Virus record (IMG/VR): IMGVR_UViG_3300029967_000162 | Coordinates: 70,148-134,147 of that record | Length of the DNA: 64,000 nucleotides | From: a virus | Taxonomy: Duplodnaviria; Caudoviricetes | Strand: one strand, 5' to 3' | Shown here: positions 1 to 64,000 of the stretch, in pieces | Numbering within the stretch: the first letter of the stretch is position 1 | How the letters are laid out: every line of letters begins with the position of its first letter | Program-made: the position numbers and the translations under genes | Notes under the pieces: model-generated | Databases searched by the model: none | Told to the model about the DNA's origin: nothing | What the model saw: the letters and a program-made list of their open reading frames with translations, nothing else

Positions 1-216
1 CCAACTGTCAATGAAGCTTTCCTCTTTCAGCTTCTCCAAGTATGGCTTCACCTTGCTTGGGATCTCACTCTGCAAATCATAAGACTTGTCTTGCACATAG
101 ACCGCAAGATACTTCACTCCGGCTTCTCTCATTCGAGAGCAGATGTCTTTCAAGAACTCTACATTCTCAAATGCAATGATGCCTACACCAAGGTCTAAGT
201 CTCTCTTTGTTCTCAT
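1..216 (-). CDS. N-terminal part (runs off window) of a possible GT2-like glycosyltransferase
   Basis: ATG at 216; MRTKRDLDLGVGIIAFENVEFLKDIC resembles the GT-A beta1-alpha1 start; lies next to a DxD-containing gene. Confidence 0.35.
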   Translation of the reverse strand, partial: MRTKRDLDLGVGIIAFENVEFLKDICSRMREAGVKYLAVYVQDKSYDLQSEIPSKVKPYLEKLKEESFIDSW

Positions 217-225
217 ATGCTTGTC

Positions 226-1326
226 TTAGTCTTTTTCTTTCAAGCCAATGATCTCAAGCAGCTTCCATGTCCTGAGCTTTGTGTGGTCAAAGTGGTACTT
301 CACAATTAGTGGCAACTTCTTGTCCACATTATCTTGCATCTGTGGGAATGCACAATAGTAGTTGCGGGCATACCAAGTGTGGTACAGCCATCTCTTGTAT
401 ACTCCTGGCTTGTCAACCTCGCTCAACAAGCTAGTTGCAAGGAAGTGCTTCTGCTCATCTATGAAGTCTTGTGAGTTGAGATACCAGAATGGCTTCTTTG
501 TGTTGATGCCAAGCCACCACCACAAGTTGTAGTAAGACTCAAATGCTTCTTCTGTGACATTCATGTCTTTCCAAGTCTCTCTAGTGATTTCATAGAAGTA
601 GAAGTCTTCATGCTGCTCTACTTGCCTGATTGCTTCAATCCTCTCATCGAAGTCTCTGAATGGAGATGTCTTTGCATAGAGCGACCTTGCAAGCACAGAC
701 CTCCTGTTGTCTTCTTGGAGAACTTCTCCTGGGATGCTAGATGTGAACTCTGACCACTTGATCTGCTTGGCTGTCTCAGCAAACTCAAGCACCTTCTCTG
801 ATGTGATGCCTGCCTGCTCTATCACCTCAATGTTCCAGAAAGAGAGGAATGGGTTGATTGCAATTGGGTTCTGTGACCTGACCAAGCAGCAACCTCCATC
901 TGGTATGCCTGCTACTGGAGACCCAGATTCCAAGAACTTCTCAAGCTCATTGAGCATGAGCTCTGCACATGAGATATCAAGGAATGCATCTTCATCAAAG
1001 TAGATGACTGCTCTCACCTTTGAGCCACTATATCCAAGAAGCCGCTCATTGTCATAGAGGACATTGTAAAGCATATACTCAAATGCATCTCTGCCATATC
1101 TGTAGCAAGTATCTACATCATCTTGATTGTAGATACAGAAGTGCTGCTTGGAGTCAAACTTGGAAGCTTTAGAGAAAGTCGATGGCAAGAACATCAAGTT
1201 GTCTTCAAAGAGAGGAGCAAATGACTTGATAGCATATCCACCAACAGAGTTCCACTGGTAGAAGCCATTTGTTGTGAACAAGACTCTTAAATCTTTGAGC
1301 CTCTTCTTTATGTCTCTAATCTCCAT
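226..1326 (-). CDS. putative glycosyltransferase-like (DxD) protein, paralog of 29158..30081
   Basis: Start MEIRDIKK; motifs VIYFDEDAF, GIPDGG, NPFLSFWN and YHTWYAR are shared with 29158..30081. Confidence 0.5.
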   Translation of the reverse strand: MEIRDIKKRLKDLRVLFTTNGFYQWNSVGGYAIKSFAPLFEDNLMFLPSTFSKASKFDSKQHFCIYNQDDVDTCYRYGRDAFEYMLYNVLYDNERLLGYSGSKVRAVIYFDEDAFLDISCAELMLNELEKFLESGSPVAGIPDGGCCLVRSQNPIAINPFLSFWNIEVIEQAGITSEKVLEFAETAKQIKWSEFTSSIPGEVLQEDNRRSVLARSLYAKTSPFRDFDERIEAIRQVEQHEDFYFYEITRETWKDMNVTEEAFESYYNLWWWLGINTKKPFWYLNSQDFIDEQKHFLATSLLSEVDKPGVYKRWLYHTWYARNYYCAFPQMQDNVDKKLPLIVKYHFDHTKLRTWKLLEIIGLKEKD

Positions 1327-1395
1327 CTTCTTACAAATAGTTCCCAAGAAAGGTGGTTGGTCTTCAGCCAAGCACATGAATTGGGAACTTAAAGT

Positions 1396-1848
1396 TTATA
1401 CTAAATTTTCAAAATCTGTCTTGCCTTGGTTCTGTATGTACTTCTTGACAATGTCTTCATTGTTTATGCCAACTGTTGCAACAAAATAACCTCCTGTCCA
1501 AAGCTTCTTTTTCTTTCAGAAGTACCTATTCAAGAACAGCCTTGCATTTCAGTTCTTGTAGATGTAGTCTGTAGACATCTGCTTCATCCTCCTGACCATT
1601 GAAGCAATGCTATAAGTTGGTGAGATCTCAAGCAAGAAGTGAATGTGGTCTTTGTCTATGCCCATCTCGTGTATCTTGAAGTCTGACATAGACTCTGCAT
1701 ACCTGAAAGCTTCAAATACAAGATCTTTGATTGGCTCTAGCACGGGTTTCCTATATTTTGTTGAGAACACAACATGATATCTGATGTGTGTCCTAGCATG
1801 TGAATAAGTCTTGTAATAGAACTCTATATTATTTTTTTCTTGTTGCAA
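1396..1848 (-). CDS. tnpA: IS200-type HUH (Y1) transposase; 2 in-frame TGA read as Trp
   Basis: YHVVFSTKYR and DHIH (HUH); reading through TGA 1549-51 and 1516-18 gives LWTGGYFVATVG and YIQNQ (catalytic Tyr), ending TAA at 1396. Confidence 0.9.
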
Positions 1849-1884
1849 GATAAATAAAGTAAGTTTAGTATATATATTTGTACT

Positions 1885-4326: not shown

Positions 4327-4442
4327 GTTGTCTTAGAAAAAACTACATGTGTTTGTATCATTGGATGCAAGGAATGTCTCACATTTTGAGAGGACAAAGC
4401 CACTATCCCACTTTAAAAACTTTGACAAAAGAATTTTTGACA

Positions 4443-6104
4443 ATGGCAAAGAAGACAGCAACTGGAGACCCTGGGCAGATGAGTTCTGTGTTTGATCTCA
4501 TAAAGAGCTTTGATGACTCAGCAGAGATCATCGCAGACAGTGCATACTCTAACATCAAAGAGTGGATTCCATCAGGCAACTACATATTGAATGCATGCAT
4601 GTCTGGTGACTTGTTCAAGGGACTTCCTTCCGGCAGGACAATATCTTTGATTGGCGAAGAAGGGACTGGCAAGTCATATTTGCAAGTATCATTTTGTCGT
4701 GAAGCACAGAAACTTGGATGGGTCCCCGTGATATTGGATAGTGAGGGTGCGATTGACTCTACATTTGTTGAACGGCTTGGTGTAGATCCCAAGAACTGCA
4801 TCATCAAGCAGGTGAACACAATCTTTGAGACAAACAACTTCATATCTAACTTGGCCAAGTCTCTGCAAGAGCAGCAAGACAAGTATGGTGAGCACCAGAA
4901 AGTGATACTTGTGCTTGACTCTCTTGGCAACTTGACTTCAAGCAAAGAGCGTGATGACACAATGGCTGGTGAGCAGAAGCGAGACATGACGAAGGCACAA
5001 GAGATTCGTGCACTGTTCAGGGTAAACCAAGTAGCATTGTCTAAGCTGCAGATCCCATGGATTGTAATTGGGCATGTTTATGCATGCCTATCTAAAGATG
5101 CTGAAGTGCTTATGGCTGACAACTCAACAAAGAACATCAATGAGGTATCTATTGGTGAGAAAGTCATGACTCTTGCTGGTCCTAGAAAAGTTGAGTCACT
5201 TCATGAATATGAAGTGAAGAATTGCATACATTTTGTGTTTGAAGATAGTACTTCTCTCACTTGCACACCAAACCATATGTTTGCCCAATCTGTAGAAGAT
5301 GGTGGATATATATGGGTAGAAGCAGCAAATTTGATTGAATGCGACACAGTAGTGCTCAAAGATTCTCATGAGCTTAGAATCACATCAAAGACAATCATAG
5401 AAGAACAAACAAAAGTCTATGACTTGACTGTGAGTGGTGAGCACACATATTTCTTGAAGAATGGAATCATATCACACAACAGCAATGACATGTTCCATCC
5501 AGGCCCTCAGCAGTCAGGTGGAGGTGGCATCAAGTACAACTCTTCTATCACATTGCTCCTCTCTACTAGGAAGCTTGAAGACAAAGAGAATGATGCAGCG
5601 GCTGGCAAGAACATAGGCAACACCCAGACTAAGAATGGCATACTTGTCAGTGTGACACCTAAGAAGTCTAGGTTCTGTGTGCCTAACAAAGTCTCATTCC
5701 AGATTCCATTCTTCAAGGCACCTAATCCATATGTTGGGCTCGAGCAATACTTGAACTGGGAGAATGCAGGTGTATGTCGTGGCAATGTCCTTGATGAGAA
5801 GGCATATGCCAAGCTGAATGCAGCTGAGCAGGCTAAGTGCCATGAGTTTGAGCATGATGGGCAAAAGCTCTGGTGCCAGCCTAAGGACAATGCACGTGGC
5901 ATGGCGGTGAAGCATCTTGGACGGCAAGTCTCATTCATTGAGTTCTTCTCAGATGTCGTGTTCACAGATGACTACTTGCATGAGATCAATGAGAGAGTGA
6001 TCAAGCCAATATTCCAGCTGCCTTCACGAGATGCATTTGATGACATCAAAGATGTTGAGGAGACACTTGGGATCGACCAAGAAGATGAAGAGACAACAGA
6101 GTAG
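4443..6104 (+). CDS. uvsX: RecA/UvsX-like recombinase with a mini-intein
   Basis: Walker A GEEGTGKS, LDSEGA, Walker B VLDSLG, SGGGGIKY. Confidence 0.85.
   Translation: MAKKTATGDPGQMSSVFDLIKSFDDSAEIIADSAYSNIKEWIPSGNYILNACMSGDLFKGLPSGRTISLIGEEGTGKSYLQVSFCREAQKLGWVPVILDSEGAIDSTFVERLGVDPKNCIIKQVNTIFETNNFISNLAKSLQEQQDKYGEHQKVILVLDSLGNLTSSKERDDTMAGEQKRDMTKAQEIRALFRVNQVALSKLQIPWIVIGHVYACLSKDAEVLMADNSTKNINEVSIGEKVMTLAGPRKVESLHEYEVKNCIHFVFEDSTSLTCTPNHMFAQSVEDGGYIWVEAANLIECDTVVLKDSHELRITSKTIIEEQTKVYDLTVSGEHTYFLKNGIISHNSNDMFHPGPQQSGGGGIKYNSSITLLLSTRKLEDKENDAAAGKNIGNTQTKNGILVSVTPKKSRFCVPNKVSFQIPFFKAPNPYVGLEQYLNWENAGVCRGNVLDEKAYAKLNAAEQAKCHEFEHDGQKLWCQPKDNARGMAVKHLGRQVSFIEFFSDVVFTDDYLHEINERVIKPIFQLPSRDAFDDIKDVEETLGIDQEDEETTE
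5085..5480 (+). mobile_element. mini-intein (132 aa, no endonuclease) in RecA/UvsX
   Basis: Starts CLSKDAEV; block B TPNH; block F VYDLTV; ends IISHN followed by Ser(+1). Confidence 0.9.
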
Positions 6105-7329: not shown

Positions 7330-9375
7330 ATGCCATTCAATGAGAATGAGAAGAGATACAACAAGCTAGACAAGCTTGCGGAAGGTGAGAAGCTGCAGAC
7401 TGTGTACTCAACTGAGAAAGTTGAGAAGATACTCAAAGACATGGGCAAAGGCTTGCAAGTTGACATGTCGCCTTTCTTCCATGGAGACACTAGATATAAA
7501 GATGCCGGATTGCTCTACAACTACACAGAGCATGAGATTGAAGAGCTGCAGAAGTGTGCTGATGACTGCTTGTACTATGTGAAGAACTATTGCAAGTTCT
7601 TGAATGACAAAGGCCGCACACTAGTCCAGCTGCGCGACTACCAAGAGCAATACATACAGATGCTTGGAGAGCAAGAGTATGATGAAGACATTGGAGAGTC
7701 GATACCTAAGAACAGGAGAATCATAACAATGATGGCTAGGCAATCATCCAAGACCACATCCACAGCAGCTTACATGTCATGGTACATGACATTCCATACA
7801 GACAAGAACTTGGCCATTGTGGCGAACAAAGGCAAGACTTCACAGGAGATTGTCTCTAAAGTCAAGGAAGTATTTGAAGGTCTTCCATTCTTCATGAAGC
7901 CTGGCATCATCCGTGCACAGATGCAGTCTATCACACTTGAGAACGGATGCTACTTGATGTGTGCGACTACTAACCCAACTTCCATCACTGGCCAGTCTAA
8001 CAATGTGCTCTACATAGACGAGGCAGCCCACATACCCCAGAACATCATGGATGCATTCTGGAAGTCAGTGTATCCCACTCTGTCTTCATTCAAGAACCAG
8101 CAGCTCATCATATCTTCTACACCTAAAGGCAAGCAGAACTTGTTCTATCGCATATGAGATGGCTCTATGAAAGGAGAGAACAACTTCAAGAACTTCAGAG
8201 TGGACTGGTGGCAGGTGCCTGGACATGATGATGCTTGGGCAGCAGAGCAGATCAAAGACTTTGGTGCTGACAACTTTGCACAAGAGTTTGGGCTCAGGTT
8301 TGAGTCAGACTCATCAAAGCTCATACGAGGCGAAGACTTCAAGCTCATGGACAGGTGGAAGTCCAAGTACAAGGTTAGGTCATTCGATGGCGTTGACAAA
8401 AGGATCTCTGACAAGATCTTCTGAGACCCAAGATTCACAATAGACACAAACAACTTGCAAGAGCTCCAGAGAAGGCACTTCTTGATAAGCATAGACACAG
8501 CAGAAGGCAAGCAAGCTGGTGTGAAAGGCAAGCAGGACTCTGACTACAACATTGGCAACATATTTGAGGTAGAGCTCATGTCGCCAGCTAGGGTGCGGAG
8601 GAACAAGAGAAGCACGATGAAGAAGCAAGTGGCATATGCGGACTGCATCAGGTACAGGCAGGTTGGCATATACATTGACAACGACAGAGATGAGGAAGAG
8701 CTTGCTGAAGCGATGAAGGTTGTGACCTTCAATGTGCTGAAGTGTGGTGTTGGTGATGTGGATAATGTGAGGCTCCTCATAGAGATGAACTTCAATGGCA
8801 AGAACTTCGTGAACAAGTTCAAGGCACATGACAACTTCTATGACAGTGTAATAATCAAGACATACCACAACAAGCCGGTGCCAGGGCAGCAGCACACAAG
8901 GCAGTTTGGCTATAAGACAGTAGGTGGCGAGAGAGGCAAGGGATACTGATGTGAGCTAGGTGCAAAGATGGTCGCAGATGGGCGAATCATCATAAGCCAC
9001 TATGATGATGACTGGAACAAGTCATCTATTGGAGAGCTTGAGAACTTTGGCAAGAACAACAGAGGAGTGTATGAAGGCTGCTGCGTGCATGATGACATAG
9101 CGATGACTGTGCTCTCTGTGAGCCACACACTAGATGACTCTCTTGAAGACTATACAGCTTGGCTTGAAGAGTATGTAGACAGGCTGCCGAAGGATGACAA
9201 GCATGCTGAAGATGTGAAGAAGCTGATGAAGATATACTCAGAGAGTGAGAGTGACTGGTCTGACAGCGACTTCAATGCAATGTATGGAATTGACAATGGA
9301 GCACACAACAACATGCCATACCAGAGCATGGTGCAGAATGTGCAGTGGGCTATTGCACAGAAGTGAAGGCACTAA
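7330..9375 (+). CDS. terL: terminase large subunit (T4 gp17-like); 4 in-frame TGA read as Trp
   Basis: LRDYQ, ARQSSKT, YIDEAAH, SSTPKG, SIDTAEG, HDDIAM; four ORF pieces join in one frame across TGA at 8155, 8422, 8947 and 9364. Confidence 0.92.
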
Positions 9376-10199
9376 TGCTTGTTGTCATCTAGCAGGTAGT
9401 TCAAGAACTTAGCAGATGCATTGATGTCAAACTTCAAGAACTCTGGCCTAATGTTCTCTTTTGTATAATAAGACCTTCCCATCATTGGATCTTTATAGAA
9501 CCTCATGTCTTTAGGAAGGTTCTTTGTCTCTATCATGAAGATTGCTGGATATATTGTTGTTCTGTTCAAGATTTTCTTGAATCTATCAAGCTTAGAATAC
9601 CAAACATCTGCAAGCAACTCAAATGTTGCATTTAAGTCTGATGAAGGCTCTATGAAATAGATTCTATCAGAATAGCCAAAGTCTTTGTTCTTTCCAGAAG
9701 GCATAAGCCCAATAGTTTCAATCTTCTTTTGTCAAACACTTGCTGTCATATGAAACAATGTTGAACACTTCTTAGAAAACTTTGAGACCGGCTGTACCCA
9801 ATCTGCTTCATATTGATAGTGATGGATTGTTGCACCTTTATATGTTCTTACGCTATATGTAGCAGGGCTATATCCACATGCTTTGAAAATCTTGTCAGCT
9901 TTGCTTACTATGTCTTCATGAACTTTGTCATCAACATCAACAGGTATAGTAAGATGAAGGATAGTAGGCACATTGTTTATGTCTTTTGTATATGACATGA
10001 TTTCATCTAAGTCTAAGTCATCATAGTCAAGCATAGACTTCAAATACCTAATTGCAGCCTTAGGCGAGTAAGTTCGTATCAATCCTTCTTCTATCATGAC
10101 TTCAGCCGCTATTTGAGAGATTCCACGCATCTTTATTTCTTGCTTGCCATTCAATCTTTCTGATATGTCTCTTGCCCAAGCTTGGTTGATTCTCTTCAT
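9372..10199 (-). CDS. ART/KptA-fold-like protein, paralog of 39585..40541; 1 TGA
   Basis: LFHMTASV(W)QKKIETIGLMPS...RIYFI...YKDPMM...YTKENIRP aligns with 39585..40541. Confidence 0.7.
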
Positions 10200-10242: not shown

Positions 10243-11454
10243 TTAATTTGTGAGGGCAATCCTCACTGGCCTAGCCACAAGGCCTCTACTCCCTAGCAAT
10301 GCATCAGGAGATGCTTTTCAAAACTTTCTTGCAATGTTGAGCGAACCATTCACATCAGCATTCAAGAGTCCAGTTGGGTCTTTGAACAATCCACGCTTGA
10401 TCCTCTTCCCAGTTGGCTTGAAGAGTTCATCATCAACTTTCCAAGTTGGCAGATAGTCATTGTTGAAGAAACTGCACTTTGATGTATAGCTTTCTTCTTG
10501 CAACACCACATTAATTCCTAACAACTTAGCCTTATATTCAATCATCTTCACAAACTGTCAGAATGGTATCTGCACAAAATTCTGGTTTGACTTCTTTGAC
10601 ATGCTTGTGTCTTGTTTCCATCCTTTGTTGTAACCAACAATGATTGTTGTCAAGGAATGTTCAACGGCTTGATTCACAATCACTCTAGAAGCCTTGTGGA
10701 GATAGTCTTTGACTTTGTTGTTTCTTTTCAGGCTCAATGCTTTGACTTTGTTGCTTGATTTTTGCTTGTTTTGCTCTAACTTTGACTTATAATGTGCTAA
10801 CTGTTTGTTATAGAATTGGTTGATTGACTTCAAAGGTTTCCCATCAATAATGAATGCATTCACTCTATTAGAAGTACATGTTGCTAAGTTGTTTACCCCT
10901 AAGTCTATAGAAAGCCAATTCCCGTTCTGTTCTTTGAGTTCTTGTTCTTCTACTTCATAGACAACTTCTATGATAAGATAATCACCTTTTGGTATTACTC
11001 TAACTTGCTTTAAATCATTAGTATGCTTTGAATTAAATTCTAAATTTGTCTTTGGTAATCTGATAATACCAATTTTCAAAAAGTTCTTGCTTAAAGTCAT
11101 TGAATTATAAGTCAAGACAAATCTTCCTTTCTCTTTATCTAAATAACTAGGTATCCTAACTTTTTTTCCTGATTTCTTCTTGAGCGACTGAAAAAATGAC
11201 TTATAATTGTAATAGACTAACTTAAGTACTTCTTGTGATGTATTTGAAGGCAATGCAAAGTAGTTCTCATCATGTCTGTCATGCAAGAGTCTGTTGAGGC
11301 CATAGTAGTCAAGAAAAGTCTTGTCTTTGAAGAACTGCTGCCTGACTTCATAGAGAGCAGCATTATAGAGGTTCTTAGACAAGAAGCACAAATGATCAAG
11401 CTCTTTGTAGAGCTTGTCTGCCTTCTTGACTATATGTTGCTCAACTAATTTCAT
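10243..11454 (-). CDS. tnpB: TnpB (IS607-associated); 2 TGA
   Basis: SIDLGVNN, EESYTSKCS, NADVNGSLNI; continuous through TGA at 10558 and 10318. Confidence 0.88.
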
Positions 11455-11476: not shown

Positions 11477-12079
11477 TTATTTATCTTCAAGCTTCAAATC
11501 TTTTTCAATGAGCTGCAACTTCTCTTTTCTTCTTGATGAGTACATCTTCATAGAGAAACAATGAATCAAAGAGATGATTTCTTCAAAGATTTCTTTCTCA
11601 ATCTCTCTAGGATTGTCTATCTCATTGAGCACTACTATGTCTACTCCATACTTTTCAAACAAAGACTTGAAAGTCTGAAATGAGATTCTTGAAAGTCTGT
11701 CTTTGTAAGTTATGAAGATCTTGTTGATCTTGTATGATGTGACATCATCTAGAAGCTCTTGGAACCCGTCTCTATCAAGTGACATCCCTGAAGCAATGTC
11801 TTTGTAAATCTTTGAGACCTTTACACCATTCTTGAAGCAGAACTGCTCTAATGTAGAGATTTGATTCTCAAGGTCTTTCTTCTGGCAGGTTGAAGAAACT
11901 CTAGCATAGATTACATTGATTTGCTCTACATTCTTGTTAAGTAGTTTATAGACATCATTCTTGTTGTAGTCATATTGGCCGTTTGGTAAGGTCTTTGTTG
12001 ATATTCAGCCTCTAGAGACATAATGACAAAGAGTAGGTCTTGTAATTTTTAACAAAGACAATACTTCTTTAGCTTTCAT
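11477..12079 (-). CDS. tnpA: IS607 serine-recombinase transposase; 1 TGA
   Basis: MKAKEVLSLLKITRPTL...RG(W)I HTH, then YARVSS and DRLSR. Confidence 0.88.
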
Positions 12080-12201: not shown

Positions 12202-12285
12202 GCCAATATGGGACAGTGGTCAACTCCACCTGCCTTGTAAGCAGGCTCTGTATAAGATGCGCAAGTTCGAATCTTGCTATTGGCT
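12202..12285 (+). tRNA. tRNA-Thr(TGT) with an unusually long (15 nt) variable region
   Basis: Acceptor gccaata/tattggc; anticodon arm cctgc-cttgtaa-gcagg; T arm gcaag-ttcgaat-cttgc. Confidence 0.8.
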
Positions 12286-12305
12286 CAAGATAAATTATCT
12301 TGACA

Positions 12306-12378
12306 TGTGGGATAGAGCAGTTGGCAGCTCATCAGGCTCATAACCTGAAGGTCGCAGGTTCAAGTCCTGCTCCCGCAA
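12306..12378 (+). tRNA. tRNA-Met(CAT), initiator-like
   Basis: Acceptor tgtggga/tcccgca; tcagg-ctcataa-cctga; gcagg-ttcaagt-cctgc. Confidence 0.9.
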
Positions 12379-12383
12379 CCGAA

Positions 12384-12777: not shown

Positions 12778-13749
12778 ATGAGGAGAACTATTTGGCATAT
12801 CTTTATAGTTGCTGCACTTGCACTTCTAGCAAGCTGCCAACGTAGGCCTATTGAGCAGACAATGTCACTAGTGCATATCACAGTTGTAGAGCAAGACTCT
12901 ATCATGAATGTGACATATGGCTTGCCAACTAAAGCTGTAGATCCACCTGAGATCACAGCAGATGGCTTCCTCCTCTACTGCTACAAGGATGATGAGAATG
13001 GCAGGCAGACCGGGCCTTATGTGATGGCAGTGCGAGGCACGGACATGAGCTATGATGGATGGCTCAGCCTTGAGAGTGGTGAGTGGACTGTCATGGCAGC
13101 CACATTTGACGGCACTGACATACAGACATCAATCACAGACATATTTGAAGATGGCTATGCATGAGTGTCACACCAGGTGAACGGCACTCTGCAACAGCCA
13201 GACCACTTCTTTGTTGGATCAGAGAGGCAGATAGAAATTGTGCCACAAGTTGCAGCTGACTTTGACACTGTGCAAGTGGCAATCAATGCTGAGACCATCA
13301 CGAAGACTTGGTATGTGCAAGTTGGCGTGGCAGAAGAGAGTGATGAGATGCCAAGTGCACTCTCTGCTTGTGTGACAGGCCTTGCAGACAATGTGAAGCT
13401 CATCACAAAGAGCATAGATGGGCAAGATCAGTCACAGCTGAAGCTTGAGCTTGTGGATGATCCATTCAGCTCAGGCAAGAAAGTGTATGCTGGGGTGTTC
13501 TCAACATTCGGGTTCAACAGCAAAGCACCAGAGATTGTGCTATCGCCTCAAACAAAGTCAATCACAAAGACATTGAGCTTGAGCGATGCTCTTGTGACTG
13601 AAGATGCGACTGAGAGGCAATGGATCATCTTGGATGATGCAGTGGGGCCAGACGACTTCAAGAGAGACACCACCCAGGCTAGCTCAGGCAGCATGTGGCA
13701 GCCATATGTCGAAGACTGGGAACATGAGACAATAAAATTTTACATATAA
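12778..13749 (+). CDS. Bacteroidota-type lipoprotein (Mfa2/DUF5119-like pilus accessory protein); 1 TGA
   Basis: Lipobox LLASC; C-terminal WQPYVEDWEHETIKFYI typical of fimbrillin-like proteins; continuous across TGA 13162. Confidence 0.6.
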
Positions 13750-13754
13750 TAAAC

Positions 13755-14765
13755 ATGAAAATGAAGTTCATTCTAGGTGCTGCTGTTGCAGCATTCATGG
13801 TGGCAGTTGGATGCACTAAAGAGAATGTCCAGCTTGCTCCTGCACAGGAGATAACAATGTCTCCTTACTACACTACAAGTGTTGCTACAAAGGCAGATGA
13901 TAACGAGCATTCGTTTGCAACTACTGAGACCTTTGTCACTAAAGTGTACTATGATGACAGCAAAGATGAAAATGGTGTCTATGTGCCAGAGTCTGTAGTG
14001 AAGTACACAGATCAATGGAGAGCTTATAATAATGAAGATGTTATGATGCACTACTATTGGCCAGTTGATGGAAAGAAGCTGACTTTCTACTCTTACTACC
14101 CAGCAAGCTTGAAGTCTCAAGAGAATGCTCCTAAAGCTTGGATTACTAGCGTTGGTGTCAATGCAGAGTTCACTTCTCGTCCAGAAGTAGACTTCATGGT
14201 TGCTGACACGCAATGTGGCCAGACTGCTAATAGTTCTAATGACAACTACACAGGTGTTCCAACGATCTTCCGGCATGCTCTTGCTAAGATTGAGACTGTG
14301 CATTTGAAGTTGCAGGGTGCGCCATATAATAGTTTGTCATACAAAGTCATGTATGTGAAGTTGACAGGCTTGAAGAATGGCACTTATACACAATCTGGTG
14401 AATCACATTGGAAATTGTCTGAAAATGATGAATATTCTGAAAATGATGGATATAGTGAATTTCTTTATAATAATAAAGATGGCTTAGAGATCAACAAAAA
14501 GGATGGCGGTAGCTTCAATGTTAATAAGTTCTTCATACCTGGAAACAACTTCAACATCACAGTTGGCTTCGAAGTTACTGGCTCTAACAACATAGTGCAA
14601 AAATTTGAGAAGACAGCAAGTGTTGAAAACCTTAGTATGCAAGAGAACTACAACTACACCTTGAACATCACTAGAGGAAGTGATAACGACAAGCCGGTGA
14701 ATGAGATCCTCTGGGCACCTTCTGTGAAAGATTGGATTGATGATACAATCAGTGTCACACTTTAG
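13755..14765 (+). CDS. fimbrillin-family (Mfa-like) lipoprotein
   Basis: Lipobox VAVGC, ATKA processing-like site, YYWP, TFYSYYP, DFMVA, FRHALAKI, C-terminal VKDW. Confidence 0.8.
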   Translation: MKMKFILGAAVAAFMVAVGCTKENVQLAPAQEITMSPYYTTSVATKADDNEHSFATTETFVTKVYYDDSKDENGVYVPESVVKYTDQWRAYNNEDVMMHYYWPVDGKKLTFYSYYPASLKSQENAPKAWITSVGVNAEFTSRPEVDFMVADTQCGQTANSSNDNYTGVPTIFRHALAKIETVHLKLQGAPYNSLSYKVMYVKLTGLKNGTYTQSGESHWKLSENDEYSENDGYSEFLYNNKDGLEINKKDGGSFNVNKFFIPGNNFNITVGFEVTGSNNIVQKFEKTASVENLSMQENYNYTLNITRGSDNDKPVNEILWAPSVKDWIDDTISVTL

Positions 14766-44880: not shown

Positions 44881-44899
44881 AAATAATTTTTTGATTAAA

Positions 44900-45562
44900 A
44901 TGATTCTAGACAAGAATGTAGCTACTGCACAAAGCTCAGACATATACAAGAAGATTGACAATGAGATTAGAGCAGATGAAGTGAAGAATGCTTTCCGTAA
45001 AGACAGTGACACTATGCTAGTCTATGAAGATGGATTCAAAGAGTGCTTCATCTCTAATTGTGGAGATGTTGACAACATAAAGTTCAAGTGTGAAGATGAT
45101 GGAAGGGTGCTAGTCTATGGCATTGATCATCTTGACTTGAGCATCACTGAAGATGCATATCAATGGCTCAAGCTGCGGTTTGGCATATTGCAAGAGTTTA
45201 GGCTGAGCCTCACCGGCAGCTCTTCTTGAGGTGGGTTTGATGGTATGAAGGAGGTTATTGAGTTGTTACCAGAAGAAGTGAAGTCTCGGATGGAGATAGA
45301 CCTCAATGGGGCTGACAGAGGCCAGTTCACTGTTTGGAACCAATACCGGATATTCATAGAGGCAACAAAGTGCTGCAGGAAGGTCAGGTTTGTTGGCTTT
45401 GACAAGCTGTTCAGGAAGTTCTCCAAGGTTGTGCCATCTCTCATCAAATCATCATTCAACTATCCAGACGAGAAAGGCAACAAGAGAAGCTATCATGACA
45501 CTGGGTACACAGACTGGTCTGATTATTTGGCCTCAGAAGATTTGTATTGGGAAATGCGTTAG
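44900..45562 (+). CDS. hypothetical protein (ILKG-leader family); 1 TGA
   Basis: Two ORFs joined in frame via SSS(W)GG. Confidence 0.65.
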
Positions 45563-45575
45563 GATTGCGCTGGAT

Positions 45576-45652
45576 CGCCCTAGTGGGCGGCTAAACACAA
45601 GGATGATTAACTAATCAAAAGTTCAAATTTGAAGGTTTGCCATCACTAGGCG
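45576..45652 (+). repeat. intergenic structured repeat, copy 2
   Basis: Matches 22173..22244; closing stem cctagtg/cactagg. Confidence 0.8.
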
Positions 45653-45724
45653 GCAAATCTCAAAAGATGAGATCTTTTACTAAAAATTTTTAGTGAAAGA
45701 TTTTTTCTTTTAGAAAGTTTGTTT

Positions 45725-45732
45725 TATATTTG
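45725..45732 (+). promoter_or_regulatory. Bacteroidota sigma70-type -7 promoter element (also 47419-47426 and 62131-62138)
   Basis: TATATTTG matches TAnnTTTG; the 47402-47429 and 62114-62141 contexts are nearly identical. Confidence 0.65.
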
Positions 45733-45791
45733 CAATGTCAATTTAGAGTTGATAAATTATAAAGGAATTAATTTTTAAAGAATTAAAGATT

Positions 45792-47363
45792 ATGGCATCA
45801 TCAAACACAATCAACTTTTGGGCAGATAGCAAGATAGCTGGGCATATGTGTGAGATACTTGTAAGGAATGTTCTTACTAGTGTTAAAGGTTGGGATCTTT
45901 CAAGAAGAACAAGCAAATATGAACATGAAGTAGGATTAGATGGAAGCAAAGAAAAGATCAAAACAGATATTATATTGCCAGAAGATGAAGCATTCTTTGA
46001 AGTAAAAGCAAGGACTAGTGATCGTCTTTATAGCAAAATGCGGAAAGAAGACCCAAGTGGAGCATTGTTGAATTCTTCTTATCATTTTTCAAATGATGAA
46101 AGGATTGCGGCAAACATGCCTAATGGATTCGCTGTCATATTTGGATATGATATAACAACAAATTCTAGCATCAATCCTAATTTAAGCAAAGACACAATAA
46201 ACTATGCTTTGCAAATATCAGATGTTTACATCTATCATTCAAACAAAAATGGAAAATGCATATATCCACACGGCAAAGAAAACTATGTAAATACAAAGTG
46301 CTTGCTTGATTCTAAATATGATTCTAAGTTTGGAGGAAACATCCCAGAGGTGCTCAAATTGATACGTGAATTGAAAGGAAAGAAGCTTGACATAAGCATG
46401 TCATACATGTGGGAAGAGTGAAAAAACAAAGATTTAAATGTTCTTCTAGAGTCTGGACGCGGCCATTGCATATTTCCGGCTGAGCACAGCAAGGTAAAAG
46501 ACAACAAAGATCACTTTCCAATCAATGACTTAGCTCATGCAAGGAATGCACTTGCTCAAGTTGCAAAGTATGACAGGTCTCCAGATTGGTATGATGGCAC
46601 ACTCACACAGCTCAAAGACACTGTGAAGAAGACAGTTGCTAGAGAGTATCCTTCTATAGTTGTGAATGAGTCTATACTCAAAGGCAGCTATGTTAAAGAT
46701 GATGCATACAAGGCAATTGACACAGCTATACATGACGATGAGTTGATTAGCAAAGCTAAAGAAGCCGTGAATGCAATGAGAGGAAGTTATTGATATGATG
46801 AAGATTTTAATAGTAAGATAAGAGCTGCCCTTTATATAAAATATCCTAAAAGAGGAAGAGTAGACTTCAAGTTCACAGATGACAAGCTTTCTTATAGAAT
46901 TGTTGGCGATAAAGTGTTTCTTGACATAAAAGATCCTAAGTTCAGCTTGGACACAAAAATATATATCGACCCAAGCAAGATACCATTTAGATTTGGAGAG
47001 ATCGGTCAATGCTTTACAATTACATATGCTGACACTTATAAAGATGTTCAACAAATGATAGAGATGCTTCCAACTCATGCTAAGGAAATTGAAGTCATAG
47101 TTGAAACAGAAAACAAAGAGCTGTTTTATAGTCTAGTCAAAGATGAAAGAGGGTTCTATGATCTTCTTGATGCATTGAAGAAAAAAGCAAAGAAGTTCAC
47201 TTTGTTTGGGGGAGCAGCACAAGCATTGAAACATCATGCTAAAAGAAATGAACAACTGATGGAATCATTGAAAAGCATTGCAACATCTAATGGATTTCCT
47301 AATGACATCGAAGAATGGTTCACAAATGATTGTGAAATAGATTCAAAGATGCTTGAGTATTAA
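45792..47363 (+). CDS. multidomain protein: N-terminal PD-(D/E)xK-like nuclease + ILKG-family domain; 2 TGA
   Basis: TDIIL...FFEVKART; no TAA/TAG in frame from 45792 to 47363. Confidence 0.55.
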
Positions 47364-51155: not shown

Positions 51156-54100
51156 ATGGGAGACAAAGAGCAGACACAGATACTGAGCGCCATCTATGGT
51201 GTGCTTGGTGACATATACAAGGCAACTGTTGATGACAAGAAGCAAAGACAGGTGAAGAGTAAACAAGACCCAAAGGTTGCTACAATTGCTGGCAAAGACA
51301 CTTTAGGAAACATATCTTCATTTGTCAGAGATGTGTCTGTGCTCTCTAAGAAGGATGCAAGGAATGCTGCATACATGCTTGACACTCTTGCAGACTCTCT
51401 TCCTAAGTTCACAGAAGCAGTGAACAAGATAGATGCAGATGCACTGCAAGGAATCTATGCAGTCAGTGTGGCAATCAACACTCTAAGCGAGATTTCAATA
51501 GGAACAGCAATCAAGCTCAAGATCACATTGCCAATGATGGCAAGTTCCTTGAAGAAGTTCATGGAAAGTCTTGATGGTGTGATGGTCAAGACTGATGAAG
51601 AAGGAGAGAATGGCCTCAAGCTTGTGGTCGGGTCTCTCAAGTCTCTTGCTGAAGTCTCTGTTTGGTCTGCTGCCAAGCTCAAGGTGTTCTTGCCTAGCAT
51701 TGGGAAGAGCCTCAAAGACATCATCTCTGTTGTCAATAGTGCAACTAAAGGTGAAGACAACACACAGAGCCTTGAAGCTGTGACAATGATGATGAAGACT
51801 CTCAGCTCACTTGCACTCTGAGACCTTGTGAAGCTCTCTGTGTCACTCAACAAGCTGAAGAAAGTTGCAAGGAAGCTTGGTGAAGTCTATGTCATCATGG
51901 CTGGGTATCCAGAAGTGAGCAAAGAGAAGATCAACCAGCTCAAAGACACTTTAGGAGCGACAGGCACATCAATGCTTGAGAGCATGTCTAAGTTCATGCT
52001 TGCAGCAAGTGCTACTGCATTGAGCATCGTCGCTGTTGGGAAGGTTGCAACGAAAGAAGACCTCCAGAGAGGTGGTCTTGTCATAGGAGCAATAGCAGTT
52101 GTGGCTGTCATTGTGAGCGGCCTTGTGCTTGTGTTGAGCAAGTTCATTGGTGCAAGGAAGATGAGTGCTGCGGCTGATGCACTCAGTGGGAGTGCACAAG
52201 TCATTATGGCGGCAGGTGTTGCTGGAATGGCCGCTGCATTGATCAGCCGGATTGCAGGAGAGAATGAGATAAGAGCTGGTGTAGAGACTATAGGGGCTAT
52301 ATCATTTCTCATGATTGGATGTGCAGCGCTCATCAAGCTCCTTGCTGGGATGAAGCCAAGAAAGATAAAGGCAGCAACTAATGCACTCAAGGCATCTGCC
52401 CAAGTGATTGTTGTTGCAGCTGGAGTCGGGCTTGCAGCTGCATTGATTGGGACGCTCTTCAAGACTGGTGACCTTGTAGAAGGCGTATTACTGATAGGCA
52501 TCATCACAGCTCTGATTCTCAAGCTCACAGACACAATACAAGTCCTTGGTAAAAAGAGTTGAGGCACATTGATCAAAGGGACACTTGTGATGAGTGCAGC
52601 TACAGCAGCAATGACATACATCACTGCCCTTGGCATCTCTATTGCAATGGCTGCTAGAGACTTCCAGACTAAAGATGTAGTGAATGGTGCACTTGCTGTT
52701 AGTGCTGTGCTTGCAGCTGTTGTTGCTATGAGCCAAGTGATGGTGAAGCTTGGCAAAGATGGCAAGAGAAGAATGAAGTGGTTTGGATATGGAGCTGCTA
52801 TGATTTCTGTTGCTACTGTCATAGTGACTGCTTGCACTGCACTTGGCATCATTATGGCTGCTGCTGGTGGAGAGATGGAGATTAAAGATGTAGTGAATGG
52901 TGCACTTGCTGTTAGTGCTGTGCTTGCAGCTGTTGTTGGTGTCGCATTCTTGACTGTCGCACTTGGCAAGATGGTTGGAAAGAACTCCAATCAGATATAT
53001 GAAGGTATTGCTGTGATAGGTGTTGCAACACTTGTTGTTGCTGCTTGCACTATGCTTGGAAGGTCAATGGCAGACATAGGTGCAACAACCAAGACCAAAG
53101 ATATAGGCAATGGTGCTCTTGCACTAGGTGCTGTGCTTGCTGGTGTTGCAGTTGTTGCACTTGGAATCATTGGGATTGGTGCGCTTGTTGGTGGCACTAG
53201 CGCAGTCTCATTCCCAGCATTGTTGGTTGGGATTGCTGTCATTGGTGTAGCAATCTTTGCAATCCACATGGTGATGAGAATTGCTGAGAGAATGGTTGAT
53301 CTCATCAAAGAAGTGAATGGCATCAACAAAGAAGACTTAGCAGATGCAAAGGGCAAGATAGCTGGTCCTGATGGCATCATGAGTGTGTTTGGTGACATCA
53401 TCTCAAGCATCATCAATATGAATGTGCTCACTGGTGAAGGAGATAGCAAAGACAAGACCATTGCTGGAAAGTTTTTTGCAAACATACTTGGCAACATGGC
53501 TTTGCCAGGTGCAATCATCAGTGTGTTTGCAAAGTCTGCTATGTTCATGATGGCTCTTGTGCCAGTCTTCATGATGATCAACATTGTCAAGAAGTTCTCT
53601 GACTTGAGGTATTATAACCCAGACACTAAAGAGTGGGAGCCATACAAGACAGAAGACTTCAAGCAAGTCTCTGCTGACATTGCATCTGCATTCAGCACTT
53701 TCATCACAACGATCATCGGCTCTTTCAAAGATCTCCCAGAAGACAATGAGAACTTCAACAGGAAGACTATCAGGAAGATCAAGAAGCTGATGGGTCCAGT
53801 CGGCTCATTCATTGACATCGCTAACAAGTTTGCTGAAGGAAAATGGGTTGATGAAGAAGGTGTTGAGCACAAAGACTTCAACCAAACATTCATTGATGCA
53901 TCTAAGGCAATTGCAGAAGGATTCTCAACATTTGTCAACAGTGTCACATCAGAGACATCTGGCATCAAGTTTGAAGATGTGAATGCTGATGGCATCAGGA
54001 GTGTGGCAAGGATGATGAAGTGGATCACTGCGATCTTTGGTGCATTCGGTACAGTAGATGGGGAGCCGGTGATCTATGAATATGATGGCAAGACTCATGA

Positions 54101-54989
54101 CTTCTTAGGCATTGGTGGCATCCCAATCTTCAACAAAGATCAAGCAGTTGTCATTGCTGATGCTGTTGAAGGCATGAAGAAAGTTGTCGATGCAATTGCA
54201 CAGATCAATGTGCTTGCTGCATCTATCAGCACAATTGAAGCTGTCCGAGACACATTCTTCACAAACACCCCTCTTGAGACAATCACAAAGAATGCTCTTC
54301 CACAGATTCACCACATGCTTGGTGCATTCGGGAGTGATGGGACACACCATTTCATCTATGAGTGGACTAAGGATGGATATGACAAGACAAGCCCTGTAGA
54401 CCTTGAAGTTGCAAGTGAGAGTATTGGAATTCTTGCAAGCACCATTCAGAGCTTCTCTGGCATCAACACGACATATGCAGCTCTTGATGAGAAGGCATTT
54501 GCATCATGGGACAAAGCAAGTCAGACATTTGTCAAAGATGCCAAGGACACTATATCTACTGCAAACTCTGGGCTCAAGACATTACAAGCAGTAGACAAGT
54601 ATCTCAAGAAGAGCCAGAAAGACAGGAAGCAGCAGCTTGAAGAGCTTGCAAAGCTCTGGAGAGATGTTGGTGAGGCAGTCAAGGAGTCCAGCAAGGCAAT
54701 GAATGACATGAACATCACTGTACAGCAGTCAAGTGCAACTATCAACAATGCTGTTGGCAGTGGAAAAGAAGAGAAGCAAGGTGTTCTTGCTAAAATTGGG
54801 ACCGTTCTTTCAGGAAAAGACAAGAATGAAGCCCAACACCCTCAACATCAGCCGCAGCCGCTCCAATCACAACAGCAAGTGCAGCAAGATCTCATGGCTG
54901 CAATGCAAGACAGTGAGAAGCAGATTCTCATCAAGATCGACAATGCAAATGGGGTCGCTCTCATAAAAGCTCTCATGCAGTACATTTAG
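51156..54989 (+). CDS. tape-measure-like protein (1277 aa); 2 TGA
   Basis: Ala/Gly-rich helical repeats; joined across TGA at 51819 and 52560. Confidence 0.7.
52670..52938 (+). repeat. exact 56-bp direct repeat inside the tape-measure-like gene
   Basis: 52670-52725 equals 52883-52938 (KDVVNGALAVSAVLAAVV), 71-codon spacing. Confidence 0.85.
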
Positions 54990-57014: not shown

Positions 57015-59258
57015 ATGGCATATAGATACAAATCAATGGCAAAGCAAGTAGAGCTTGGCAGAGACCAAAACATATTTGAGTCAGGTGATGCTTGGGACCT
57101 TGATACACAGCTCAACAACTTGAAAGAGACTTTCCAAAAGAAAGTCCTTGTGCGTGGAACTTCAGACTTAGACGGCATGTCTGACTTGTCTGATGAGACT
57201 GACTACCAATACAGGACACCAGGTGACCCAACTGTGTACCACTTGAACATCAAGAGGCTTGCACACATGATAGACAACACTCTCACAATGGCAAGGTCAC
57301 TCTCTGGCATATCTTTGATGGTAGAGTATTGGAACTCTCCAATCATCTGGACATTTGAATGCGGCACAGCTTGCACTGATGGCATCAGGATTGCATTCAA
57401 CCCTCTGTTTGCACAGCATTTGATTGGTGAAGATCCAACTACTGAGGCTAGAGAAGAGACCAAGGAAGAGTCTGATGACCCATTGACAAGCATGAAGAAA
57501 GTTATGCCACTTTTCTTCATCATCGTGCACGAGACATATCACCAAATCTACAGGCACCCACTTCGTGAGAAGCTGAAAGGTGTGCCAAGCTCTCTGCACA
57601 TGACTGCAAATGTTGCACAAGATGCAGAGATAAACCGAGACATTGAGAGCGACTATCCAGCGTTCTTCAAGGGGATGACTGACTACATCCATGGAATCAT
57701 TGGCACACCTGAGTACCCAAATCAAGAGTGGGAGTACATATATGACCAAATCTTAGAAGGCAAGTGGGATAGAGCAAATGAGTTCTTAGGCAACTTGCAA
57801 GATGAAGAGAAGCAGAGACAATCTGGGAAGAAACAGCAAGGTAAGGGACAGCAAGGACAATCCGGACAGGGGCAATCTGGTCAAGGTCAACAAGGCCAGT
57901 CTGGACAATCTGGACAAGGCGGTTCTCAAGGACAAGGACAACAAGGAGATGATGGTGTGCCAGAGCAGAGCTTTGGTGGCGGAGGAGCTAGCAGTTCACA
58001 ATCACAAGATAATCAATCTAATCAGCAAGGACAAGGAGGGCCACAAAGCCAAGGTCAAGGTGAACAAAGCCAATCTGGAGAACAAGGGAGCCAGCAAGGT
58101 CAAAGCGGAAGTGCTCAACAAGGAAGCCAACAATCTCAAGGTTCTGGTGTCGGCAATAGTGAGCAATCTGATGACTATAAGAAAGGCCAGATTGATGCAT
58201 ACAAAGATGCAATCAATGGAAAGCCTAAGTCTAAGTCTGGCAACGATGCTTATGAGAAAGGATACCAAGATGCAAAGGAGCAGATCAACAAAGCTAAAGA
58301 GAATGCTGGCAAGAGTGTGTATGATGAACAAGATCCATCAAGCTCTACATTTGGTGGTGATCGTGTAAGCAAAGAGCAGATGGACAAGCTCGCAGATGAT
58401 GCAGGACAATCATACAAGAATGACACAAGTGAGACTGATGCTGACAAGAAAGCCAAGGACTACATTAATGAGCACAGAGATGCGCTTGACAAGATAGGCA
58501 ATGGTTGAGGATCTCCATCAGGCAGCAAGAGTAGAAGCAGTGGCGCTGGCTCTATGAAGGAGCGATTGCGCAAGATTGATGACATGCTCAAGCCAAAGAT
58601 TAATTGGAAGTCTCGCCTTCGTCGAATCTTCAATGCAATGGTGCCAGCTGGCCAGAGATACCTTCGTTCTAAGCCACTCATCTCTCAAGATCGCATGGAC
58701 CGTTACAACATGGTCAAGCCACAAGAGTACAAGAAACGCGAAGGGATTGCCCAAGTGCTCTATCTTGTAGATGGAAGTGGCTCTATGTACATGAACACTG
58801 ACAAAGTCTTTGACTACATCATGTCTGAGATCATCAACCTTGAGAAGTCATGCCAAGTCAAGACATCTGCATTCACATACTTCACTTATGGTGTCCATTC
58901 AGAGAACCTCAAGCTTTGGCATGACACAACATCAAAGGCAAAGATCAAGGAGATGATTGCAAGCCAGCCAGAATCTGGTGGCACTGACATGGTCAAGAGC
59001 TTGTATGATGTGATGGCTCTTAAGAAGCCATACTTCAGCAAGCAAGAGCCAGGAACTGTCGTGATTATATTCACTGATGGTGAAGATGACTACAGCAAGA
59101 TGAAAGAGTTCCCATGGTCATTCCGGAAGAAGCTTATGTTCATTGTCATAACACCAGATGGAAACCATGATGCGGCTGAGAGATTGAAAGAAGGTGGCAT
59201 ACAAGACACTAACATCATGTACATCTCATCAGATGAAGTCTTGAGAAATGCAAAGTAA
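57015..59258 (+). CDS. DUF2201-like metallopeptidase + Q/G/S-rich linker + vWA domain; 1 TGA
   Basis: TACTDG, HETYH, NVAQDAEIN, VDGSGSM (MIDAS), GGTD, IFTDG. Confidence 0.8.
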
Positions 59259-62623: not shown

Positions 62624-62633
62624 CAAGATAGAT

Positions 62634-62719
62634 GCCTCAGTGGCGGAATTGACAGATGCGAAGGACTTAAAATCCTTTAGGCAGCATTGCTTGTGTGAGT
62701 TTGATCCTCACCTGAGGCA
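62634..62719 (+). tRNA. tRNA-Leu(TAA)
   Basis: gcctcag/ctgaggc; aagga-cttaaaa-tcctt; long variable arm. Confidence 0.88.
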
Positions 62720-62739
62720 CAACTATATTAAGAAATTAT

Positions 62740-63399
62740 ATGAAGATATCAGAAGCACAGATTGAGACCAACAAGCAGAGATTCATTGACATTCTCTCAT
62801 CTGTAGACAGACCAGGAATCCAAGAGCTCCTTGCTTGGCTTGAAAAGACAGACTTCTATGTGGCACCAAGCTCTGCAACATATCACAACAACTGCAAAGG
62901 TGGGCTTTGTGCACATAGCCTCAATGTATATGATGTAGCTAGGAAGCTAGAGAGTGAAGTCATGCCAATGAGCAACAAGACATGCCAGCACCAATACACT
63001 GAAGATGAGCTGAAAGTGTCATGCTTGTTGCATGACTTGTGCAAGATTGCTTTCTACGTGCCTAAAGAGAAAGTCTGGAAAGATGAGAGTGCACCTTATG
63101 GGCAGCAATGGAAGAAGTACCAAGGTTATGAGATAGTTGACAAGCTGCCGCTTGGCCATGGTGAGAAGAGTGTGATGATGGCACAGCAGTTCATCAAGTT
63201 GAGCCTCAATGAAATGGTTGCTATCAGATGGCACATGGGCGCGTTCAGTCCAGCAATCACTATAGACCCATATGAAAAGCCAGCATACAACCAAGCAATC
63301 AATGAATGGCCATTAGCAGTGCTTGTTGCATATGGTGACCAACTTGCATCAATGCTTGTTGAAGAGACTTATGACTTGAAAAGAGAAGGAGATGTATAA
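62740..63399 (+). CDS. HD-domain phosphohydrolase
   Basis: FYVAPSS...H...GGLCAHSLNV, LLHDLCK, GHGEKS, IRWHMG. Confidence 0.85.
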   Translation: MKISEAQIETNKQRFIDILSSVDRPGIQELLAWLEKTDFYVAPSSATYHNNCKGGLCAHSLNVYDVARKLESEVMPMSNKTCQHQYTEDELKVSCLLHDLCKIAFYVPKEKVWKDESAPYGQQWKKYQGYEIVDKLPLGHGEKSVMMAQQFIKLSLNEMVAIRWHMGAFSPAITIDPYEKPAYNQAINEWPLAVLVAYGDQLASMLVEETYDLKREGDV

Positions 63400-63413
63400 G
63401 CATCTCCTTCTCT

Positions 63414-64000
63414 TTATCTTTTGGTCTCTAAGATTGCAATTCGAGCTTCAAGTTCTCGAACTTTCTCTTGAAGCTTACCAACTGCAAGTGACAGTGTTGC
63501 ATTATAGTCAACATGCTTCATGTTGTCTTCTTCAGAGACAGAGACAAGTGAAGAGAGCCCTTGTGACTCAAGCTCTTGAGCGATGAAGCCATAAGACTTG
63601 AGAGAAGTGTCTTTCCACTTGAATGCAAACACTGATGGCTCTGGTGTTTGACTAGAGATTTGGTTGATCTCTGTCTTGAGTTTCTCATCAGAAGAGGCAT
63701 AGAAGGAAGAAGCCGTCATACTACCTGAGATAGAAACTGTATTTGTGAGGCTAATTGTTGTACTAGAAATTGAGATATTAGACCCACCAGTATATGAAGT
63801 AGTTGTACTGTCGCCTTTTGGGCCAGTAGGGCCTTGTGGGCCTTGGTATCCCTGCCTGCCTTGTGGTCCTTGTGGGCCAGTAGGGCCTTGACGGCCTTGG
63901 TATCCCTGCCTGCCTTGTGGTCCTTGTGGGCCAGTAGGGCCTTGACGGCCTTGGTATCCCTGCCTGCCTTGTGGTCCTTGTGGGCCAGTAGGGCCTTGTG
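63414..64000 (-). CDS. C-terminus of a collagen-repeat tail fibre with an intramolecular chaperone (peptidase S74) domain; partial
   Basis: [19 protein letters not shown], coiled-coil end; upstream Gly-X-Y repeats. Confidence 0.85.
63820..64000. repeat. 54-bp tandem repeat encoding collagen triplets
   Basis: Unit recurs at 63841, 63895 and 63949. Confidence 0.9.

Follow-up and report, generated by a model that had tools for sequence, protein, structure and literature searches.

The 64,000-nucleotide stretch analysed here, referred to below as the window, is the final 64 kb (bases 70148-134147) of a linear IMG/VR virus record of 134,147 bases (IMGVR_UViG_3300029967_000162), a contig with a GC content of 43% in which the codon TGA stands inside the reading frames of many genes. 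Among them is TerL (7330..9375, + strand), with TGA at residues 276, 365, 540 and 679; its name had been proposed in an earlier reading made without database searches (the sequence-only reading) and was confirmed by a Pfam match (Terminase_6N, E = 7.5e-18). It is followed on the opposite strand by a protein without an assigned function (9372..10199, -) that carries one TGA, at residue 156, and has a TGA-free paralog at 39585..40541 (+), which provides an internal control. Two conserved proteins carry two TGA codons each: one of 853 amino acids (17758..20319, -; residues 132 and 725), 44% identical to a product of the Lak megaphage genome Lak-B5, and one of 471 amino acids (20349..21764, +; residues 301 and 303). 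Four TGA codons are found in a 1737-amino-acid protein presumed to be structural (23607..28820, +), for which no Pfam or PHROGs family was matched, two in a 1277-amino-acid protein for which no family was found (51156..54989, +), and one in a metallopeptidase-like or VWA protein (57015..59258, +; Pfam DUF2201_N, E = 1.8e-8). A probable baseplate module lies at 43803..47363 (+) and consists of 43803-44486 (one TGA), a gp25-like gene at 44512-44880 (none), 44900-45562 (one) and 45792-47363 (two); the label "baseplate" is weakly supported by a GPW_gp25 match at 44512-44880 whose E-value of 1e-4 is below the Pfam cut-off. PHROGs gave no match for 20 window proteins, and neither Pfam nor PHROGs supported the labels "tape measure" and "tail completion" given in the same reading. 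Genes free of TGA include RecA/UvsX with an intein (4347..6104, +; 7 TGG; Pfam RecA, E = 6.8e-12, plus Hint/intein domains), dnaK in two pieces (36076..39491, +; 36076-36702 and 38211-39491, covering HSP70 positions 1-203 and 210-599) and DnaJ (40548..41615, +; Pfam DnaJ, DnaJ_C and CXXCXGXG domain). Gene models and domain searches agreed with the earlier statement that UvsX, DnaK, DnaJ, S1, the OmpA-like protein and HD all lack TGA.

Gene models were frames bounded by TAA or TAG and ranked by a codon-usage score trained on long open reading frames (ORFs) of genetic code 11; 117 were obtained on the contig, 54 of them in the window. The window models contain 40 in-frame TGA codons in 22 genes, and the fimbrillin-like ORF at 13695-14765, which the greedy set had dropped, adds one gene and one TGA (41 in 23), in agreement with the sequence-only estimate of about 40 in about 23 genes; on the whole contig, 105 TGA are distributed over 55 of the 117 genes. 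When greedy non-overlapping ORFs were compared under alternative stop sets, reading TGA as sense reduced the window ORFs from 89 to 59 and raised their mean length from 224 to 341 amino acids, and in the first 70 kb of the contig the mean rose from 208 to 301. The gain was far smaller with TAG (79 ORFs, mean 255 amino acids) or TAA (77 ORFs, mean 260 amino acids) as sense, so the comparison of coding density under alternative codes favoured TGA. TGA occurs 2.7 times per 1000 codons in frame versus 31 and 67 times in the other two frames, and the genes end in TAA (67) or TAG (50), as had been read from the sequence. TGA codons within the last 10 codons of genes number 4 against a rough expectation of about 3, and this near-expected level gives no hint of residual TGA stops. 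TGG prevails over TGA in the window (246 versus 40), also as first described; TGA makes up 15.8% (105 of 664) of the tryptophan codons of the contig, and 53% of the genes have none. These results demonstrate that TGA is a sense codon and that TAA and TAG remain stops.

The residue encoded by TGA was examined in alignments with distant homologs, close relatives and paralogs. Among 120 full-length TerL homologs, the column of TGA-365 held tryptophan in every one, that of TGA-276 held Y, W or V, and that of TGA-540 held Y, F or W; TGA-679 stands two codons ahead of TAA and outside the alignment. All 117 proteins, each TGA being translated as X, were also compared by tblastn with the whole Lak-B5 genome and with a standard-code relative, L007, and 56 of them gave matches. 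The 43 TGA sites that aligned corresponded to W (13), F (7), Y (7), a gap (4) or K (3), and none to G. In the 853-residue protein Lak-B5 has W at column 132, in the 471-residue protein it has W and Y at the two TGA columns, and the four columns of the 1737-residue protein are N, W, F and Y in Lak-B5 and L007. With substitution spectra taken from the same alignments, the maximum-likelihood residue at the 43 sites was Trp (lnL -103, versus -131 for Tyr and -213 for Gly), so that Gly lay 110 units below Trp. Two other assignments were rejected: selenocysteine, as Trp or aromatic residues stand at the aligned positions, and code 25, in which TGA means Gly in Absconditabacteria and Gracilibacteria phages, as none of the 43 aligned sites was Gly.

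Closer comparisons pointed the same way. Two relatives were used, contigs L024 (83-89% protein identity) and L025 (about 90-96% in most genes), and in aligned segments of at least 80% identity the 18 TGA sites comprised 15 TGA/TGG swaps, 3 shared TGA and no other codon (12 swaps and the 3 shared sites in L024, 3 swaps in L025). Accordingly, the TerL TGA sites are TGA or TGG in both relatives, and the two sites of the 471-residue protein are TGA and TGG in L024. The 853-residue protein is 89% identical in L024, which has TGG at both of the TGA positions and TGA at two different Trp positions. At 18 TGA sites that could be compared with paralogs within the genome, the paralog had TGG in 7 cases and TGA in 4. 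The internal control held exactly: residue 156 of 9375-10199 (-), in ASV-TGA-QKKI, aligns with the TGG-encoded Trp of VSPWQEKI in 39585-40538 (+), the pair being 40% identical with a BLASTP E-value of 8e-70. Thus the proposal of window-wide TGA-to-Trp recoding is upheld by ORF lengths and by homolog, relative and paralog alignments; at the sequence level it is established that TGA means Trp in this phage, and the alignments show that TGA and TGG interchange freely between close relatives. L025 is also TGA-recoded; its TerL contains an in-frame insert of about 175 amino acids, absent from TerL here, with a TGA inside it.

The base that follows TGA also bears on its identity. On the contig, G follows TGA in 48% of cases and C in 8%; G follows in 79% (22 of 28) in G001, a second contig from the same sample described below, and in 75% (9 of 12) in L024, compared with 15-29% after TGG. 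The A-ending codons of A/G synonymous pairs (AAA, GAA, CAA, TTA and AGA) show the same preference, with G as the next base in 48-73% of cases and C in 5-9%, while G comes after their G-ending partners in just 9-15%. TGA and TGG thus act as one more synonymous pair of this kind, TGA obeying the A-ending rule and TGG the G-ending rule. This strong codon-pair rule holds across the contig, G001 and L024. TAG in Lak-B5 showed no such next-base bias, and the TGA+G context was rejected as a release-factor or suppressor signal because all NNA codons obey the same rule and the Lak TAG does not.

The contig is part of a larger genome. CheckV rated the 134 kb 24% complete, and the estimated full genome is about 550 kb. 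A 101-kb contig in JGI metagenome 3300017492 matches it at 99-100% identity, and the 48.7-kb IMG/VR contig G001 (CheckV, 9% complete) overlaps its left end by 240 bases at 99.2% identity. The link is a repeat of about 100-240 bp that joins the left end (1-244) to G001 (19-258) and recurs inside the contig at about 8470-8571. G001 is TGA-recoded as well, with 28 TGA across 18 of its 50 genes. The contig ends within a collagen-repeat gene with an S74 intramolecular-chaperone domain of the tail-fibre type (window 63414-63998, -), and these repeats probably broke the assembly. No extension beyond G001 was reached: 28-mers from the right end of the contig and from tRNA-Leu had no match in IMG/VR, a tRNA-Leu 23-mer had none in the JGI metagenomes, and the far end of G001 matched only itself. 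A search of IMG/VR for loci related to TerL also found none.

TerL gave its best GenBank matches to the Prevotella Lak megaphages (43% identity over 90% of the protein), metagenome TerL proteins reached 53-56% identity, and the 56 proteins matched in the tblastn comparison have counterparts in Lak-B5. In a FastTree phylogeny of 124 TerL sequences, this phage, L025 and L024 formed a clade with support 1.0, whose sister (support 0.99) contains P0001, with Lak-B5 placed elsewhere. Code 11 leaves the ORFs of the P0001 contig (L007, L008) unbroken, with 97% coverage; for Lak-B5 the best fit is code 15, which gives little gain for the contig analysed here. The sequence comparisons support a very large, Lak-related phage, and the tree shows that it falls outside Lak proper, in a TGA-using branch of Lak-related huge phages whose nearest sister contig is standard-code. 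All Lak lineages use code 15, the deepest branches being without recoding (PMC8346664; PMC11165621), and codes 4, 11 and 15 are known to mix within phage clades (Borges et al., bioRxiv 10.1101/2021.08.26.457843).

The sequence-only reading had spoken of a probable Bacteroidota jumbo phage. The completeness estimate and the Lak-B5 matches support a very large phage, and a Bacteroidota host is plausible. The clues are the kinship with Lak, whose members infect Prevotella (PMC8346664), a fimbrillin-like Mfa domain and an OmpA-like gene; Shine-Dalgarno-like 4-mers occur in 5 of 117 upstream regions versus a background of 8.5%. As a host marker, TnpB gave one match, 27% identical, in a spirochaete metagenome-assembled genome (MAG).

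Six tRNAs were found on the contig by ARAGORN and Rfam, and none of them reads UGA. They are tRNA-Thr(UGU) (12202-12286, 85 nt) and tRNA-Met(CAU), which together occupy 12202..12380 (+), tRNA-Gln(UUG) (16895-16969), tRNA-Pro(UGG) with a 77-nt insert (17258-17408), tRNA-Ala(UGC) (55343-55419) and tRNA-Leu(UAA) (62634-62720). The earlier statement that no tRNA with a UCA anticodon lies in the window was thus correct. G001 has no tRNA at all, and relaxing the ARAGORN threshold or permitting long introns yielded noise and no UCA tRNA. The search beyond the window for tRNA-Trp(UCA), RF1 or TrpRS, which the same reading had proposed, found none on the 134-kb contig and G001, together about 30% of the estimated genome, and no RF2 antagonist or suppressor candidate was found on the assembled sequence. 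As about 70% of the estimated genome is unseen, the missing UGA-decoding genes on these 183 kb say little. The tRNA-Pro(UGG) is interrupted after the anticodon loop, its insert has an acceptor/T-arm-like minihelix, and the L024 tRNA-Pro is uninterrupted; the 77-nt insert was rejected as a hidden UCA tRNA, as it has neither an anticodon arm nor a UCA anticodon. The tRNA-Thr(UGU) of 85-90 nt has a long extra arm, unusual for Thr, and is kept in L024 (12008-12097) and L025 (7504-7588).

We consider it highly probable that the phage uses TGA as a second Trp codon genome-wide, which amounts to NCBI table 4, and that UGA is decoded by a phage-encoded suppressor in a standard-code host. In such a host, probably of the Bacteroidota, a phage tRNA-Trp with the anticodon UCA would decode UGA in competition with host RF2, and a phage RF1 or TrpRS may assist, as in the TGA-recoded Jade phages, which carry a module of tRNA(UCA), TrpRS and RF1 (bioRxiv 10.1101/2021.08.26.457843). 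This machinery would sit in the roughly 70% of the genome unassembled here. Once a suppressor was present, TGG-to-TGA changes would be nearly neutral and would accumulate by drift and by the A/G context preference, a course of events that predicts a near-random spread of TGA over Trp codons. Roughly one gene in two, including TerL and the tail sheath (TGA at residues 228 and 301), would then need UGA decoding for the full product, so that without the suppressor no virions would be made, be it a timer or not. Efficient decoding is needed because TerL and the 1737-residue protein have four TGA each.

Several observations weigh against this interpretation. Conservation is lower at TGA sites (30% aligning to a Lak W) than at TGG sites (49%); 7 of the 105 TGA lie within the first 10 codons, and one gene (g044) holds 6 within 50 codons, so a few of the 105 may be artefacts of miscalled starts or pseudogenes. 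The standard-code status of the sister group is that of one contig, TnpB gave no close bacterial relative that would name the host, and neither a tRNA(UCA) nor an RF-1/RF-2 domain nor a class Ib synthetase domain was present on the 134-kb contig or G001. Of the code-4 phage genomes studied by Borges et al. (bioRxiv 10.1101/2021.08.26.457843), just 35% yielded a TGA suppressor. The missing machinery could be taken to mean that the host itself reads TGA as sense, as in code 4 (Mycoplasmatota-like) or code 25 (Absconditabacteria/Gracilibacteria), and that the phage matches it. We regard this as very improbable: the lack of Gly at the 43 aligned sites excludes code 25, TGA accounts for just 16% of Trp codons and is missing from 53% of genes, the nearest sister contig is standard-code while Lak relatives infect Prevotella, and a Bacteroidota host is consistent with the Mfa domain, the OmpA-like gene and the missing Shine-Dalgarno motifs. 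UGA might instead be decoded by a route that dispenses with a dedicated phage tRNA, with host RF2 modified or inactivated or host tRNA-Trp(CCA) altered to read UGA. Such a route was raised by Borges et al. (bioRxiv 10.1101/2021.08.26.457843) and would accord with the low frequency of suppressors in code-4 phages as well as with the lack of tRNA(UCA) on 183 kb, yet most of the genome is unseen, between 24 and 56 tRNAs, suppressors among them, are encoded by Lak relatives (PMC8346664), with tRNA(CUA) and tRNA(UUA) in Lak-B5, and no candidate protein was found. Moreover, simple leakiness cannot yield full-length products from genes with four TGA. We therefore think this route improbable, if less so than a host with TGA as sense, and favour a phage-encoded suppressor.

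A separate question is whether TGA is placed so as to control gene expression. The sequence-only reading had proposed that sparse TGA codons gate structural and packaging genes, an idea already published as a model by Borges et al. (bioRxiv 10.1101/2021.08.26.457843), in which selection keeps TGA in late, structural, packaging and lysis genes so that these stay untranslated until a suppressor appears or a release factor changes, with early genes kept free of TGA. That model rests on other clades, and here the checkpoint was not specifically supported. A random allocation of the 105 TGA among the 664 Trp codons gave an expectation of 58.7 +/- 3.4 TGA-free genes, and 62 were observed (P = 0.20). 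With the multi-copy DUF7487-like family included, TGA was over-dispersed among genes (P = 0.009); without this family the effect vanished (dispersion P = 0.22; 62 TGA-free genes observed versus 61.8 expected). Virion and packaging genes (TerL, sheath, prohead protease, pectate-lyase-like and BspA-like) had TGA at 11 of 65 Trp codons, which is the genome mean; the prohead protease had none among 5 Trp codons, and the anaerobic ribonucleotide reductase (NrdD) had one. Regional clustering was weak (P = 0.07). In favour of a checkpoint, TerL, the tail sheath and baseplate-region genes do carry TGA, and ten housekeeping-like genes (RecA, gp32, ClpX-like, two DnaK, DnaJ, S1, HD, NrdD and OmpA-like) are depleted, with TGA at 1 of 38 Trp codons (P = 0.012); this class was chosen post hoc and consists mostly of conserved host-like genes, in which recent acquisition or stronger constraint could explain the lack of TGA. 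An ATAAAT motif, often [G/A]ATAAAT[A/C/T], precedes 35 genes of the contig, with a peak at 30-39 nt before the start; they include TerL, the prohead protease and three baseplate-region genes (for example upstream of 7330, 17758-20319 (-), 43803, 45792 and 55508). The motif is probably a phage promoter and resembles the T4 late promoter, TATAAATA. Genes with the motif more often contain TGA (21 of 35, 60%, versus 34 of 82, 41%; P = 0.07), and TGA makes up a share of 0.19 of their Trp codons versus 0.145 (P = 0.16). As most genes are without an assigned function, the power of these tests is low. We hold a selected checkpoint to be rather unlikely; the data permit a timer without calling for one, and drift once a suppressor had been acquired accounts for the pattern just as well.

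Selfish genes are enriched in TGA. Contig-wide, genes of the DUF7487, DUF723, TnsA-like, TnpB and TnpA types had TGA at 32 of 71 Trp codons (45%, versus 16% overall; P = 6e-9), and part of this excess may come from decaying copies such as g044. A DUF723 endonuclease-like gene (34885..35916, -; Pfam DUF723, E = 1.1e-17) has 4 TGA among 7 Trp codons. An IS607-type element (10243-12079) consists of a serine-recombinase TnpA with a Resolvase domain (11477..12079, -; E = 4.1e-25; TGA at residue 25) and a TnpB (10243..11454, -; OrfB_IS605 and Cas12f1-like TNB, E = 1.1e-25 and 4.8e-9; TGA at 299 and 379); the three TGA in its genes indicate that the element is adapted to the code of the phage. An IS200/IS605-type element at 1399-3198 carries a Y1 transposase and a TnpB free of TGA. 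Between the two dnaK pieces lies an insert of about 1.5 kb, whose endonuclease-like ORF (37003-38100; 2 TGA) gave weak TnsA-like and DUF7487 matches; no Rfam intron family reached the gathering score in the insert, which may be an intron, and dnaK may otherwise be a split or a broken gene. The Hint/intein insert of RecA/UvsX (4347-6104) is absent from the L025 gene (3846-6413), and with the insert in L025 TerL it seems that inteins are mobile among the essential genes of this lineage. The fimbrillin-like gene with one TGA (13695..14765, +; Mfa_like_1, Pfam PF13149, E = 3.5e-14), a pilus component of Bacteroidota type on a phage, belongs to a group of lipoprotein-like genes at 12778-16269.

Stop recoding of this sort has been described in phages before, and the known picture of it is unchanged; what is new is the placement of the lineage and the near-random, context-governed use of TGA, which forms a counter-example to the model of recoding as a late-gene timer. 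There is a practical consequence: annotation under code 11 breaks up roughly one gene in two, with TerL, the tail sheath and the largest proteins of the virion among those affected, and public protein sets already contain such fragments, for example a 275-amino-acid piece of TerL as a database cluster. As a tentative synthesis, to which we would give somewhat less than an even chance, the Lak-related radiation of huge gut phages would have changed its code in two independent events, one giving TAG=Gln in Lak proper and the other giving TGA=Trp in the present branch from a standard-code ancestor, and TGA use in this branch would reflect essentially neutral drift under a constitutive suppressor, obeying the NNA|G rule, piling up in selfish genes and forming no tuned checkpoint.

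Three groups of recoded phages invite comparison. Like the crAss-like phages with TAG-to-Gln or TGA-to-Trp changes (Yutin 2021; PMC9523058), this phage has reassigned a stop codon. Those are phages of Bacteroidota in which recoding was mainly noted in late genes and has proteomic support; they belong to an unrelated lineage with much smaller genomes, and the recoding described here is known from sequence alone. The resemblance to the Jade and Agate code-4 gut phages (Borges et al.) is closer: in both, in-frame TGA aligns with Trp while TAA and TAG are kept as stops, only some genes are recoded, close relatives vary between TGA and TGG at the same sites, the nearest relatives are standard-code, and structural and packaging genes need readthrough. 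Unlike those phages, this one has a Lak-related TerL lineage and an estimated genome of about 550 kb versus their approximately 130-210 kb, with no suppressor tRNA, RF1 or TrpRS module on the assembled part and no TGA enrichment in virion genes. With Lak ("Grandevirales"; Devoto 2019, PMC8346664, PMC11165621) it shares TerL kinship, a recoded stop, many endonuclease-like DUF7487 genes, scattered tRNAs and a huge estimated genome, the Lak genomes being about 470-660 kb and the size here a CheckV estimate alone. It differs in that Lak reads TAG as Gln and keeps TGA as a stop, whereas here TGA is read as Trp and TAG ends 50 of 117 genes; its TerL groups beside standard-code contigs and not within the Lak clade, and its GC content is 43% versus 26-31% in Lak. 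A TGA=Trp branch beside the TAG=Gln Lak phages, with a standard-code sister, thus provides a natural three-way comparison of code change in huge phages.

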